A DNA stretch of 15,633 nucleotides from the IMG/VR virus record IMGVR_UViG_3300031834_001018. One strand, written 5' to 3'. The position numbers and the translations under genes are program-made. The notes below the pieces were generated by a model. The model ran no database searches and had not been told where the DNA came from. It saw only the letters and a list, made by a program, of their open reading frames with translations. The DNA comes from a virus. The stretch's first letter is position 1; each line of letters starts with the position of its first letter. Below are positions 11,204-15,633 of the stretch, piece by piece.

Positions 11204-13936
11204 TTGAGACTTGATATCATCGACACGGACGGAATAGCCATAGGTTTGCCTGAAATCTTGGTTCCTAAAATCTTCGAAAATCGGAGATTCTCAAAACTTG
11301 GATTGTTTTCTCAACAGATATTTGGACCGGTAAAATCACATCACTGCCTTTGTTCTAAACAATCCTACAAAGGACCCAGATATGGAAAAAAGAAATGTCC
11401 TATATGTAATGTGCCTATTATAACATCTGACGCAAGAAAGAAAAGATTTGCAAAGATTGCTTTACCATTTCCGGTAATGAATCCTCTTTTCTTCTATTTG
11501 ATTGTAGGAAACAGAATCACGTTGAAAAAGATTCTAACCGAGATGCTTTCCTATAAAGCAAAATACTATTTCGATACAGAAGGATCTATAGTAAGAATAT
11601 CGGAAGGGGACCCAACCCCGGAAGGCCAGCACACAATGTCTGGTTTGTCTGGTGTTGTGGAATACATTAGAAAAATCTTGGATATGGATGTAATCCCTGT
11701 AGAGGGAGATGAAGATCCTGGTCCTCTAAGAAAAGAACTACAATATGTAAAAGATCATTTTGATCTGTTAACCATAAAGAATGTTATAATAATTCCACCT
11801 GATTTTCGCCCTTGCGGAAAAGGAAATACAGATCATTATGTTGTTGATGATGTGAATGAGTTATACAACAAGATATTGAAGATATCAAACCAGTTGAAAG
11901 ACGTTCCATATCCTCTTCAGGAAACAGAAGATGTTTATAAAGCAAACTTCAAGTATCTACAAAAATTAATATTTGACCTTTGTGATTATATTTTAGAAAG
12001 AATGAGTAAGAAGACAGGATTGATTCGATCAAACATACTTGGAAAACGTGTTGACTTTTCAGGAAGAGCAGTTATATCCCCAGATCCAACACTGAAGTTG
12101 AATGAATGTAGACTTCCCTATTGGATGGTTTTAGAAATACTTAAACCACAACTTATTGCTCATTTTGTCAATCGACGTATCTGCAAAAGATATAATCAAG
12201 CAATACAGATGATTGACGCCAGCATACAAGACAACGATTCCAAGTTTTTTGATGTTGTCCAAGAATTCTGTAAAGATAAGATATGTGTTTTGAATAGACA
12301 ACCAACTTTACACAGATTGTCTGTACTAGCATTCAAAGTAAAGATTCATCTTGGAAATACAATTCAGATACATCCAATGGTGTGTTCTCCATACAATGCG
12401 GATTTTGATGGAGATGCTATGGCTGTGTATTTCCCTGTAACAGAGGAAGCGCAAAAGGATGTTGCTAAACATCTTGGTATATGGAATAATTTGGTTTCTC
12501 CGACAGACATCAAATGCGTTCCTAAGCCAAATCAGGATATTATTCTCGGTATATATTCTGCAACAAAAGAAGCAGAATCTGTGCCAATGAAAGAATTAAA
12601 TGGCCAGCCGATAGCTGAAGGAAGATTTAGATTCAATGAATGTCTTCCAGAAGACTATGTTATAATAGATGAAGAGGTAACTAAAAAGAAGCTAATTACT
12701 GTTCTAAATGATATCGCTCTAAGATATCCTCCGGCAGTTGTTATGGATACTATGGATAAAATCAAAGAACTTGGTTTTGAATTATCGACAATAGAAGGTT
12801 ATACTCTTTCATTAAGCGATCTGTATAATCCCAGACTCCTTGAATATGCCCAGGCATTATCGGGAGATCGTCAACAGGATCAGCACTTTATTAAAACCAA
12901 TCAAGAGTTTAAGAGAACTTTGAAAGCTTGTCCTTTCTCAATCTTTATTGAATCAGGTGCTAGAGGAACTTGGGATCAGGCATTACAAATGGTTTTTACA
13001 AGAGGATATGTTGCTGATGCTGATAACAAAGTTCGTCCAAATTTAATCAGATCCTGTTTAGTTAAAGGACTATCTCCAAGAGAATTCTTTGATAGTTGTT
13101 GGGGATCTCGAAAAGGATTGTTAGATACGGCGTTGTCTACAGGTGATAGTGGTTATTTAACCAGGCAATTAATCTATAGTACCGCAACATTGGAATTAGA
13201 TGAAACTCCCGAGGGAGAAGATTGCGGGACTACTGATGGGATGGTGGTGAACATTACAGACAAATCTATGGTTGAAGCACTACTTGGTAGATATTATATT
13301 ACCAAAGAAGGTAGAAAGAAATTAATCAAACTTTCTGATGCTCAATCGTTGATTGGAAGAACGATTACACTTCGTAGTCCAATGTATTGTAAGGGTAAAA
13401 AGATTTGTCGAACTTGTTATGGAAAATTGTATAAAGTTCTGCATAGTTCACAAATTGGTATTGTAGCAACACAAGCTGTTGGTGAAAGAGCAACACAACT
13501 GGTATTGAGAACATTTCATATCAGTGGCGCAGCTCAAAGTAACGCTCAAGGTGAAAACGAAGATATCATTTCAGGAATGTCTGTTGCAAAGAAACTTTTT
13601 CACAATCCTAAAGATATTAAAGAATTAGAAGATATCAAAGAACCAGCGGATCTTGTCAAAATGATTTATCGAGTATTTGGACAGTATGGAGAAATTCATC
13701 TTGTACACTTTGAGATAATTGTTGCGGCAATGATGTGGGTTGGTGATAAAATGTGGAGATTGTGCGATAATCGGTTGTCTCTAGAACCAGAGTATGTTAG
13801 CATACTGCAAGTGCCATCTAGATCCTCTTGGCTTCTTGGATGTGCATTTGCCAATTTGAAACAAAAATTGATTTCTGGTCTAATTGGTGGTGATGGAGAT
13901 CAAGAGTCATCGATTACTTCGTTGTTTAGATTATAA
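11204..13936 (+). CDS. rpoC: DNA-directed RNA polymerase beta-prime subunit. It is compact (910 aa), divergent and uses a TTG start.
   Basis: The N-terminal zinc ribbon IFGPVKSHHCLCSKQ...CPICNV...RKKRFAKIALPFPVMNP is present. The catalytic loop is YNADFDGDAMAVYFP. The bridge-helix region is WGSRKGLLDTALSTGDSGYLTRQLIY. The trigger loop is GERATQLVLRTFHISGAA. An AAGGAG SD sits 9 nt upstream of TTG. Confidence 0.9.
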   Translation: MRLDIIDTDGIAIGLPEILVPKIFENRRFSKLGLFSQQIFGPVKSHHCLCSKQSYKGPRYGKKKCPICNVPIITSDARKKRFAKIALPFPVMNPLFFYLIVGNRITLKKILTEMLSYKAKYYFDTEGSIVRISEGDPTPEGQHTMSGLSGVVEYIRKILDMDVIPVEGDEDPGPLRKELQYVKDHFDLLTIKNVIIIPPDFRPCGKGNTDHYVVDDVNELYNKILKISNQLKDVPYPLQETEDVYKANFKYLQKLIFDLCDYILERMSKKTGLIRSNILGKRVDFSGRAVISPDPTLKLNECRLPYWMVLEILKPQLIAHFVNRRICKRYNQAIQMIDASIQDNDSKFFDVVQEFCKDKICVLNRQPTLHRLSVLAFKVKIHLGNTIQIHPMVCSPYNADFDGDAMAVYFPVTEEAQKDVAKHLGIWNNLVSPTDIKCVPKPNQDIILGIYSATKEAESVPMKELNGQPIAEGRFRFNECLPEDYVIIDEEVTKKKLITVLNDIALRYPPAVVMDTMDKIKELGFELSTIEGYTLSLSDLYNPRLLEYAQALSGDRQQDQHFIKTNQEFKRTLKACPFSIFIESGARGTWDQALQMVFTRGYVADADNKVRPNLIRSCLVKGLSPREFFDSCWGSRKGLLDTALSTGDSGYLTRQLIYSTATLELDETPEGEDCGTTDGMVVNITDKSMVEALLGRYYITKEGRKKLIKLSDAQSLIGRTITLRSPMYCKGKKICRTCYGKLYKVLHSSQIGIVATQAVGERATQLVLRTFHISGAAQSNAQGENEDIISGMSVAKKLFHNPKDIKELEDIKEPADLVKMIYRVFGQYGEIHLVHFEIIVAAMMWVGDKMWRLCDNRLSLEPEYVSILQVPSRSSWLLGCAFANLKQKLISGLIGGDGDQESSITSLFRL

Positions 13937-13966
13937 TCCACTCAAAAGAAAAGGACTAAGACTAAA

Positions 13967-15633
13967 ATGAATCCAACACAAATGGTCGCACCAATATTCC
14001 GGAGAAGACGTTCGGAATGGAATCCGATAAAAGTCAAACAATATATTGACAAAATATTTAGTACAATCACAGTCCTTCAAGGGTGGAGATGGGAAGGAAG
14101 TGAATATGTTGAGGTCACAAGACCAAAGAAAAAAGAAGATTTGAAAAAGAGCATCTATAGTGTTCTTCGTACAAAGCTTATTGATCCGGAAGGTAGAGAA
14201 TATGAATATTCTTTACAAGTTCCAGATCTTTATTATGATCAGTTCTTCTTTATTGGTGGATTTTTGAAAGTACCAATCTTCCAATTATTTGATCTTCCTA
14301 TTATATATCGTGCAACATCTTCAGGTAGCATTTTGAAATTGAGAACCAATGCAATATCAATTACCACCGACTTAAACCGTCGAGACGAAGTTGTTCAAGT
14401 AAATCTTTTCAATAAGGATATACCAATTCATTTATTGATTTCGGCATTTCATAATCAAGAAGAATTGAATGCCTTCAAGGAAACACATCCTTCTGAACAA
14501 GCATTTAAGAAATTGGATAGCGATGGAAATGTTATTCAAGATAATGGTGAAATACTGGAAAGAATCTATGCTAAATGTGTAGAGAAGTGGCAAGTACAAA
14601 GAACTCCAGATGAAATACATGCTGAAATTGGTGAGTATTTTATGAATCAACCTTCTGAGAAATATAAGAAGGGTGAAAGCACTTTGTTTTCCTTGAAGGC
14701 GGCTTATGAAGTAGATCACTTTAGTCGAGAGTTCTTTCATACAAATTCTCTTCTGTTTGAGATACTGCATGCTGTTTGGGAAGGCCCAAGATCTGATACA
14801 AATATTCATTTTAAGAGAACGCGTTTTGCGGAATATATACTAGCACCGTTAATTCATAAAATATATGACATGTTAATCACACTTCACAAACACCACAAGG
14901 ATAAGTTTCAAATTCCTCAGAATTTGATTCTTGAACATTGTAATACATCTGATGGTAAAAATACCAAAGATGCTGTTGCAAACATTGTTCATTATAATAA
15001 TCCAATCAATCCTGTTGGTGAACTTGCAAGTTTCCTACAATGTAGTTTGGTGGGTCCAGGTGGTTTCAAGAAAGATAACGTTCCACCACATTTGAGAAAT
15101 ATGGATGAATCTCAATATGGTCTTCTTTGCCCTGCAGATACGCCTGATAGAGAAGGTTGTGGTGTAATTCAAAATATGGTATCTACCATTAAAGTTGATG
15201 AACTAGGTAGGTTTGGGGAAATTACAGAAGAACTTGTGTCTTCTCATCCTATTTCTTTGGTTCCGTTTATGCAAAATGATGATGCCACCAGATTACAAAT
15301 GGCAAGTAATCAGATTAAACAAACGATCATGTTGAAATCTTCACAACTTGCTATGATCAGAAGTGGTAATGAAGGATTATATCTTAATGAAACAACATTC
15401 TATCGTACAGCAAAAGAAGATGGAATTGTTATTCATTTAGATCCATCATTTATGATTGTTTTATATGATCAGGTGTCTCCTAAGCAGGTTGACATTTTCA
15501 ATATCAAATATCGCGGGTTGTATTTGAACACAATTGACTATATCGAACCAATGCGTGATACAGGACAAAGATTTCAGAAAGGTGATGTTCTTTGTCAATC
15601 TCTATTTATCAAGAATGGAGAATTGTGTCTTGG
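13967..15633 (+). CDS. rpoB: DNA-directed RNA polymerase beta subunit, N-terminal part. The ORF is open to the 3' end of the window, so it is partial.
   Basis: I read the frame codon by codon and found no stop from 13967 to the window end. It has a Rif-pocket-like segment, GPGGFKKDNVPPHLRNMDESQYGLLCPADTPDREGCGVIQNM (compare GPGGL...[21 protein letters not shown]). It also has FMQNDDATRLQMASNQIKQ (compare FLEHDDANRALMGANMQRQ). Confidence 0.85.
   Translation, partial: MNPTQMVAPIFRRRRSEWNPIKVKQYIDKIFSTITVLQGWRWEGSEYVEVTRPKKKEDLKKSIYSVLRTKLIDPEGREYEYSLQVPDLYYDQFFFIGGFLKVPIFQLFDLPIIYRATSSGSILKLRTNAISITTDLNRRDEVVQVNLFNKDIPIHLLISAFHNQEELNAFKETHPSEQAFKKLDSDGNVIQDNGEILERIYAKCVEKWQVQRTPDEIHAEIGEYFMNQPSEKYKKGESTLFSLKAAYEVDHFSREFFHTNSLLFEILHAVWEGPRSDTNIHFKRTRFAEYILAPLIHKIYDMLITLHKHHKDKFQIPQNLILEHCNTSDGKNTKDAVANIVHYNNPINPVGELASFLQCSLVGPGGFKKDNVPPHLRNMDESQYGLLCPADTPDREGCGVIQNMVSTIKVDELGRFGEITEELVSSHPISLVPFMQNDDATRLQMASNQIKQTIMLKSSQLAMIRSGNEGLYLNETTFYRTAKEDGIVIHLDPSFMIVLYDQVSPKQVDIFNIKYRGLYLNTIDYIEPMRDTGQRFQKGDVLCQSLFIKNGELCL

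Follow-up and report, generated by a model that had tools for sequence, protein, structure and literature searches.

The DNA considered here is the 15,633-nucleotide IMG/VR virus record IMGVR_UViG_3300031834_001018, referred to as the window. Its positions 11204-15633 lie within a single unbroken plus-strand gene block that spans the window, and carry a complete gene for the beta-prime subunit of a multisubunit RNA polymerase (RNAP) followed by the first part of a beta gene. A preliminary description of this stretch had proposed a compact, divergent and unsplit multisubunit RNAP, with the zinc ribbon, the NADFDGD motif, the bridge helix and the trigger loop in one polypeptide. We regard it as very probable that the two genes encode the beta-prime and beta subunits of the catalytic core of a phage polymerase of mReC type (multi-subunit RNAP-encoding Caudovirales; Weinheimer & Aylward 2020, Nat Commun 11:4506, PMC7481178). 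The features are listed in Table 1.

Table 1. Features of the polymerase genes in the window (aa, amino acids; nt, nucleotides; residue numbers are those of the encoded protein unless marked E. coli)
Feature	Position	Strand	Basis or remark
Shine-Dalgarno sequence AAGGAG	11189..11194	+	9 nt 5' of the beta-prime TTG; direct sequence reading
Unsplit RNAP beta-prime gene, mReC type, complete, 910 aa, TTG start, stop codon	11204..13936	+	Pfam, family profile, Foldseek
N-terminal zinc ribbon C48/C50/C65/C68	11345..11407	+	aligns with E. coli C70/C72/C85/C88
Catalytic Mg-binding motif NADFDGD, residues 398-404	12395..12415	+	sequence and alignment
Bridge helix, about residues 622-660, GLSPREFF...SGYLTRQLIYS	13067..13183	+	aligned to E. 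coli 770-805; many invariant columns
Second zinc site C674/C729/C735/C738	13223..13417	+	aligns with E. coli C814/C888/C895/C898; all four invariant
Trigger loop, about residues 750-800, without SI3-type insertion	13451..13603	+	TQLVLRTFHISGAA...DIISG versus E. coli 925-941 and 1133-1137
Beta-prime 3' end, about 15% DNA divergence from sister contig L003	13648..13933	+	holds 42 of the 43 differences of the gene
Beta-prime/beta spacer, 30 nt, AAGGA at 13951-13955	13937..13966	+	empty site of the L003 endonuclease insertion
RNAP beta gene, first 555 codons, ATG start, open to the window end	13967..15633	+	Pfam Rpb2_3
Beta Rif pocket and fork loop 2, equivalent to E. coli 505-575, outline kept, substituted	14942..15178	+	alignment
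Beta motif FMQNDDATRLQMASNQ (E. coli FLEHDDANRALMGANMQ)	15263..15328	+	alignment

The beta-prime product was recognised by four Pfam families (RNA_pol_Rpb1_2 at 8.5e-35, Rpb1_5 at 1.2e-26, Rpb1_1 at 4.5e-09 and Rpb1_3 at 2.8e-08), and a profile of its family matched bacterial beta-prime chains in the PDB at E ~1e-150. An AlphaFold model calculated from the family alignment (mean pLDDT, the predicted local distance difference test, of 76) had the B. subtilis beta-prime 6wvj_D as its top Foldseek match with E 3e-44. Model confidence was low at residues 768-789 of the trigger loop, which is to be expected because this loop is mobile. A protein search with beta-prime returned 5417 matches at E<=1e-10 among the candidates scored, cellular beta-primes being counted in. 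The best 120 homologues listed are mostly 873-988 aa long and cover ~97-100% of the query with few fragments among them; because of this similar size and near-complete coverage we take 910 aa to be the full length rather than a truncated form. Besides the sister contig L003, the nearest database relative among the matches listed is 72% identical.

The family alignment comprised 21 diverse members, 39-73% identical to the window, together with the beta-primes of Salmonella (used for E. coli numbering) and S. aureus. Catalytic residues and zinc ligands are invariant over the 21 members, the exception being C50, which is conserved in at least 90%. This holds for N398, D400, D402, G403 and D404 of the catalytic motif (21/21), for C48, C65 and C68 of the zinc ribbon, and for the second zinc site. 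The F loop and the bridge helix together occupy approximately residues 591-660, and the lid and the clamp helices are also retained in the family according to the alignment. All the elements that the preliminary description had placed in one polypeptide are thus visible in both sequence and alignment, and the single open reading frame (ORF) runs from the zinc ribbon through the trigger loop to the C-terminus. Judged by their sequences, both polymerase genes are genuine and seem to be functional.

The beta-prime is approximately 300 residues shorter than that of S. aureus. All of the missing residues are peripheral, and the same segments are gone in 21/21 family members. In E. coli numbering the deletions comprise 206-234, the rudder at 309-325, most of 518-570, about 40 residues of the secondary-channel rim helices at 647-719, the jaw at 1153-1213, 1269-1302 and the C-terminal tail at 1344-1389. 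In E. coli this tail wraps around omega. SI3 is likewise absent from the family, as it is from the beta-prime of Firmicutes. The alignment itself was computed, while the names rudder, jaw and rim helices follow what we take to be the corresponding textbook landmarks of the E. coli subunit. Missing C-terminal clamp elements had been put forward as a sign that the gene might be truncated or split. The jaw, the 1269-1302 segment and the tail are in fact absent, but their absence is conserved throughout the family and neither a truncation nor a split was found. As far as the alignment can tell, the small beta-prime is the result of a family-wide loss of peripheral elements, neither a truncation nor one part of a split subunit.

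The part of beta inside the window was detected by Pfam Rpb2_3 at E 1.3e-10. The full subunit is provided by L003 (ENA contig k141_5699758), which is 18 kb long, 99.4% identical to the window and extends further downstream; there beta is a single 1061-aa ORF with Rpb2_3, Rpb2_6 (1.9e-52) and Rpb2_7. Each of the two subunits is therefore one ORF, which agrees with the proposed difference from the split subunits of the phiKZ/AR9 type. Beta retains intact barrel motifs (GDKVANRHGNKGV and NPLGIVSRMNVG). Its lobe and flap are shrunken, as is the equivalent of E. coli 578-656, and the flap-tip region is poorly conserved. The Rif pocket and the HDD motif of beta had been called recognisable and strongly diverged, and the alignment leads to the same view: the Rif region keeps GPGG and CPxxTP with the equivalents of H526 and R529 changed to S and Q, and the NDDATR region is recognisable and substituted. 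With these two key contact positions altered, it is a reasonable inference that the polymerase would be insensitive to rifampicin.

The order of the two genes, beta-prime before beta and thus the reverse of the bacterial order, had already been pointed out for the window, and it is found on the same strand in 83/83 related loci. Beta is indeed the next gene, but it does not follow quite as immediately as had been stated, as the spacer with its AAGGA lies in between. Crude ORF calls put beta directly next to beta-prime (gap <=120 nt) in 38 of the 83 loci; the other loci have short spacers, small ORFs or endonuclease-sized ORFs at this place.

The mReC phages are uncultured, often jumbo, and have a T4-like capsid. 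The published set contains 97 metagenomic contigs that encode an unsplit beta and an unsplit beta-prime (about 900-1060 aa, with NADFDGD), capsids of the T4 gp23 type and PF03237 terminases; its RNAP clade is separate from the cellular lineages (PMC7481178). Contigs were counted as mReC in that study if they encoded a COG0086-like beta-prime and a COG0085-like beta, each of at least 800 aa, with NADxDGD and a stop codon. The window has the 910-aa beta-prime with NADFDGD and a stop codon, and the beta of 555 aa in the window reaches 1061 aa in L003. Three of the related loci correspond to published mReC contigs: L009 to 3300005915 Ga0075122_10000014 (152,423 bp; beta-prime 933 aa), L008 to 3300009676 Ga0116187_1000326 (59,680 bp; beta-prime 954 aa) and L043 to 3300017989 Ga0180432_10000164 (105,615 bp). 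They were matched to the supplementary list by metagenome identifier and length in bp, and L008 and L009 additionally by a beta-prime size within 1 aa. A gp23-type capsid (PF07068 type) is listed on the contig corresponding to L009 (PMC7481178).

The window beta-prime is 52% identical to that of L009, 49% to that of L008 and 40% to that of L043, compared with only 24-29% to bacterial and other phage beta-primes. The phylogeny that had been suggested as a check was calculated as a neighbour-joining (NJ) tree of beta-prime, in which the window nests with L004, L007 and the published mReC contigs L008 and L009. Because of the 49-52% identity to L008 and L009 and the nesting with them, the window is by sequence comparison a new member of the mReC lineage published in 2020, and its polymerase type was already known in phages. 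The sequence is hence new as a member, but not as a type, since this type has been described (PMC7481178) and other unsplit phage beta-primes exist in Rhizobium phage RHph_Y65 and Vibrio phage Va2. A later paper places a viral RNAP from a hydrothermal mat near the mReC clade.

The locus is viral and does not belong to a reduced bacterium, which is also what the preliminary description had assumed. When IMG/VR was scanned with the alignment and the hits were confirmed by tblastn, at least 556 relatives were obtained, on contigs of viruses measuring up to 321 kb; a pattern scan of IMG/VR with a single sequence gave none. A whole-window megablast against 50,697 phage records gave no match, and this collection holds no close relative, the best beta-prime identity being <=30% and no match covering 80% of beta. 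A T4-type large terminase (PF03237) is located ~12 kb downstream of beta-prime, as a cluster present in 11 of the 80 fetched loci. Upstream of the polymerase pair the window encodes ThiF and JAB-like proteins, a homologue of the vault protein, a GIY-YIG endonuclease and Gat-QueC. The neighbours in the window and its relatives are of a kind usual as cargo in phages, among them two free-standing GIY-YIG endonucleases, the Gat-QueC gene with an intein in a relative, and FolE or FolE2. Scores stay below the cut-offs of the NCBIfam equivalogs, with 410.9 bits against 963.5 for rpoC (TIGR02386) and 367.6 against 896 and 335.8 against 801 for rpoB (NF001616/TIGR02013). The window contains no tRNA genes and no Rfam matches. 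We call the locus viral because of the IMG/VR relatives, the nearby terminase, the phage-cargo neighbours, these scores, and the lack of tRNA and Rfam matches in the window.

Two homologues bear bin labels of cellular metagenome-assembled genomes, Peribacteraceae and Thorarchaeota, and could be quoted in favor of the view that the contig is a piece of a reduced bacterial genome (of a symbiont or a member of the Candidate Phyla Radiation, CPR) with a rearranged rpoC-rpoB. These labels span different domains of life, however, as is expected of mis-binned viral contigs. The NCBIfam scores far under the cut-offs, the terminase near the IMG/VR relatives and the capsid genes reported for such contigs (PMC7481178) speak against a cellular origin as well, and so do the free-standing homing endonucleases around the polymerase genes. 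Pfam found no ribosomal-protein neighbours in the window, and comparison with the Salmonella locus found no rplKAJL context around its polymerase genes. We consider a cellular origin extremely improbable and rejected it, as it is already contradicted by the viral relatives, the scores and the neighbours.

Comparison with the sister contig gives information about selection. The beta-prime genes of the window and of L003 differ at 43 nucleotides, 38 of them at third codon positions, with 3 amino-acid changes. At the level of sequence these mostly synonymous differences show that beta-prime is strongly constrained. They also bear on the idea that the genes are host rpoB/rpoC acquired not long ago, or relics in decay whose products have ceased to form an active polymerase. 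Phages do take up host genes, and many peripheral modules are gone from beta-prime. Against this, the losses are identical in members that are only 40% identical to one another, every catalytic and zinc ligand is invariant, and no bacterial sequence is closer than ~30%; the published phylogeny sets the clade outside the cellular lineages (PMC7481178). A recent capture or a relic is in our opinion very improbable, and the pseudogene reading was rejected on account of the intact catalytic residues and the synonymous differences.

Among known systems, bacterial RNAP is the best match in sequence and fold. It shares the double-psi beta-barrel centre, the zinc sites, the bridge helix, the trigger loop, the clamp helices and the flap, at only 27-31% identity to the window subunits. 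The window-type subunits are smaller, with 910 aa for beta-prime compared to 1207 in S. aureus and 1407 in E. coli, and 1061 aa for beta compared to 1183 and 1342. The bacterial rudder, jaw, part of the rim helices and omega-contacting tail are not found in the window beta-prime. In the bacterial operon rpoB precedes rpoC downstream of rplKAJL, whereas the window has the reversed order without rplKAJL.

The phiKZ and AR9 enzymes are likewise phage-encoded multisubunit RNAPs in which alpha, omega or sigma have not been recognised; they are considered to make the phage independent of the host RNAP (PMC7598289). Their beta-prime and beta are each distributed over two or three polypeptides with two enzyme sets per phage, whereas each is a single polypeptide here; a second RNAP copy was not found in any 20-kb related locus. 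The PHROG search gave 2.6e-96 for an unsplit family versus ~1e-37 for the split-subunit families. Structural matches in BFVD were best for unsplit phage beta-primes of 1127 aa and 1192 aa (6.5e-38 and 1.2e-35), followed by RPB1 of nucleocytoplasmic large DNA viruses (NCLDV; ~1e-20 to 1e-24) and by split beta-primes of phiKZ-related jumbo phages (1e-15 or weaker). The AR9/PBS1 beta is 24-25% identical over ~57% of the length.

The unsplit beta-primes of RHph_Y65 and its relatives (Kleczkowskaviridae; 1127 aa) and of Va2 (1192 aa) are these best viral structural matches. They are 24-26% identical to the window, have no beta gene within 8 kb, and group with bacterial sequences and not with mReC in the NJ tree. 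The crAss-like gp66 and YonO are also phage-encoded two-barrel RNAPs, but with both barrels in one divergent protein that is invisible to cellular rpoB/rpoC profiles (PMC7481178); the window has two genes, each found by cellular profiles of Pfam and NCBIfam with E 1e-35 to 1e-122.

From these observations a possible mode of action can be outlined. The beta-prime and beta genes are probably co-transcribed within the long plus-strand gene block, and their products would make up a two-barrel enzyme of the bacterial type. Its active centre is intact, with both zinc sites, the bridge helix and the trigger loop in place, and the modules it has lost are peripheral ones that serve regulation and assembly in bacteria. 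This enzyme most likely transcribes phage genes without the host beta and beta-prime. Its targets could be the middle and late genes, or all genes if the enzyme is packaged in the virion, and the choice of promoters may be made by a specificity factor not yet recognised. We infer that transcription may be independent of the host in this sense. A core lacking alpha and omega, as in phiKZ and AR9 (PMC7598289), would be consistent with the loss of the omega-contacting tail and with the lack of recognisable alpha, omega and sigma genes.

Several points weigh against our reading. The suggested search for a sigma factor was negative: Pfam and PHROGs revealed no recognisable sigma, alpha, omega or known transcription factor in the 10-kb flanks, and none of sigma, alpha or omega was recognised in the part of the published mReC annotation table that was covered. 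Independence from host alpha, omega and sigma is derived from these negatives and the lost contact regions only. No conserved promoter motif was detected in the window or its close relatives. There is no structural gene in the 15.6-kb window or the 18-kb L003, and the assignment to a phage rests on the relatives. The tree is a distance tree of beta-prime only, without archaeal, eukaryotic, NCLDV or phiKZ/AR9 sequences; the phiKZ/AR9 subunits were left out because they are encoded by scattered split genes and, by PHROG, BFVD and tblastn scores, are much more distant. The literature searched yielded no expression, proteomic, biochemical or structural study of an mReC polymerase.

The main rival is a hybrid enzyme, in which the phage beta-prime and beta assemble on a host alpha dimer with a host or phage sigma, so that transcription would be re-targeted and not host-independent. 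It has this rank because the negatives for accessory genes cover only the 10-kb flanks and part of the annotation table. The enzyme is of the bacterial type and nearer to bacterial beta-prime than to the phiKZ/AR9-type subunits, no phage alpha-like assembly platform was seen in the 10-kb flanks, and relatives use ordinary hairpin and T-tract terminators. A flap and the clamp helices, which are the docking site of sigma region 2 in bacteria, are kept. On the other hand the omega-contacting tail is deleted, the flap-tip region is poorly conserved and the identity to the bacterial subunits is low. The lineage occurs in very different environments and presumably hosts (PMC7481178), which makes a conserved docking to many alphas and sigmas less likely, and phiKZ and AR9 show that alpha-less cores can work (PMC7598289). 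Taken together we regard the hybrid as quite unlikely and keep to a phage polymerase of mReC type that may act without host subunits.

Non-canonical promoters and terminators had been suggested for this polymerase. This idea is not supported by the sequences. The window contains 51 sigma-70-like sites where 55.7 are expected, i.e. chance level, so that a new promoter type is neither demonstrated nor excluded. In the intergenic DNA of the 83 loci, k-mer enrichment was limited to Shine-Dalgarno words, T-runs and a single composite motif, AAAGGAG-type words being the main enriched motif; in the close subclade nothing besides Shine-Dalgarno words appeared. The promoter motif discovery that had been proposed thus returned no shared motif in the window or close relatives. 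T8 is ~70-fold enriched in the intergenic DNA of the relatives, which have classical terminators with a GC hairpin and T7-8.

The hairpin at 5641-5676, just 3' of the vault-protein homologue, had been cited as an example of U-tract-less termination. It is real and stable, with a perfect 13-bp stem and a UUCG loop, and the 66-nt segment 5631-5696 folds at -28.6 kcal/mol (z -5.9). There is indeed no T tract on the coding strand, and a consensus scan calls it terminator-like on the minus strand only. Its interpretation as a non-canonical terminator is disfavoured, because the family uses ordinary hairpin and T-tract terminators.

The composite element consists of a GC-rich hairpin and T7-8 directly followed by GGAACAAAATATAAA, ~30 nt 5' of a conserved 361-aa gene. 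It occurs once per locus in a distant subclade, ~11 kb downstream of beta-prime (L014, L022, L025, L027, L030, L036, L037, L044-L046, L053, L061, L065, L071, L074, L075 and L081), and this hairpin-T8-GGAACAAAATATAAA element is absent from the window. In our reading an ordinary intrinsic terminator here borders on a candidate promoter, and the TATAAA core of the latter is, we assume, reminiscent of T4 late promoters.

The border between the two polymerase genes differs between the sister contigs. L003 carries an insert of 746 bp there (L003 12735-13499) that encodes a 254-aa homing endonuclease with NUMOD3 (1.7e-27) and GIY-YIG (4.8e-07) domains; the BLASTN breakpoint is at window 13937/13947 and L003 12734/13481. 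The window has the empty site at this position, so that presence or absence of the endonuclease is polymorphic, and the diverged tract at the beta-prime 3' end adjoins the insertion point. Within the aligned 12.7-kb block (window 1204-13937) as many as 42 of 75 mismatches are crowded into the last 290 nt of beta-prime. From its position and divergence this tract looks like a homing-site or co-conversion tract. The window has a GIY-YIG endonuclease gene elsewhere, at 6296-7099, which falls into the same BLAST cluster as the L003 insert; a 51-aa ribbon-helix-helix (CopG-like) ORF at 6205-6360 overlaps its start.

Further upstream, the RNAP genes have a conserved neighbour in a module for ubiquitin-like conjugation, located at 64-3036 in the window and 1-9 kb upstream of beta-prime in L010-L085. 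The ThiF-type E1 (window 1077-2123) is present in 72 of 84 sources, i.e. the 83 loci and the window, and ThiF is annotated beside the RNAP genes also in a part of the published mReC table (PMC7481178). The ORF at 2182-3036 resembles a JAB/JAMM peptidase with the motif HKHPDGCHGFSGTD, a Pfam match to Prok-JAB being found only in a relative. Relatives add to the module a further ThiF-like gene, a protein of 856 aa that weakly matches Prok-E2_D, and one of 159 aa that ends in ...GRKG and matches ThiS below threshold. The window ORF 64-1095 has an E2-like 'HPNV...GGVC' motif; its identity as an E2 on the basis of the HPN...C motif was unsupported by Pfam and PDB sequence searches and is a lead only.

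The gene at 3054-5630 encodes an 858-aa homologue of the eukaryotic major vault protein (MVP; Pfam MVP_shoulder 1.2e-27, Vault_3 1.1e-10), and residues 488-841 match the rat and human MVP chains at E 8e-16. Of 84 RNAP loci, only the window and L003 possess it. Full-length comparison gives 40-42% identity with ORFs in LR756500, LR756501 and LR756503, named 'uncultured phage', including records of 462 kb and 735 kb. MVPs of viruses have been described in a preprint of 2023 (10.1101/2023.11.10.566534).

Genes of 7-deazaguanine metabolism also accompany the polymerase. Gat-QueC, a fusion of glutamine amidotransferase and QueC, lies upstream of it at 7042-8745, and is interrupted in L004 (5057-8053) by an intein-like HINT/NUMOD3 insert. 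FolE (GTP cyclohydrolase I) directly follows beta in L003 (16637-17326) and in L004, and FolE2 is found in 65 loci, together with a radical-SAM enzyme in more distant relatives. A DpdA/TGT-like gene was not seen in the regions examined. The 7-deazaguanine pathway genes in the polymerase block suggest a modified genome, and because they share this block the enzyme may be suited to such a template. AR9, with uracil DNA and a dedicated polymerase, offers an analogy by which a dedicated polymerase might, speculatively, fit a 7-deazaguanine-modified genome.

A more far-reaching proposal would be a truly minimal active beta-prime/beta heterodimer without alpha, omega or a sigma-70-family factor, which uses an unrecognised phage initiation factor and is specialised for a 7-deazaguanine template, with the E1/E2/JAB linkage reflecting control of transcription or of the polymerase by conjugation. 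In this complete form we hold the proposal to be unlikely.

The mReC lineage has so far been used for deep phylogeny. The 2020 study is phylogenetic, and its main text does not contain the words 'shorter', 'adjacent', 'synten' or 'sigma' (PMC7481178). As it is silent on size, gene order and accessory factors, the deletion map, the gene-order statistic and the neighbourhood description are additions to it, and the relative distances given here also go beyond it. The pair in the window is a well-preserved example of the smallest bacterial-type multisubunit RNAP lineage among the sequences compared, with a beta-prime of ~900 and a beta of ~1050 aa. The deletion map indicates which modules a working two-barrel polymerase of the mReC type appears able to lose, namely the rudder, the jaw, half of the rim helices and the omega-docking tail. 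The family could therefore represent an attractive target for expression and structure determination, with respect to both a minimal transcription machinery and the escape of phages from control of the host RNAP.

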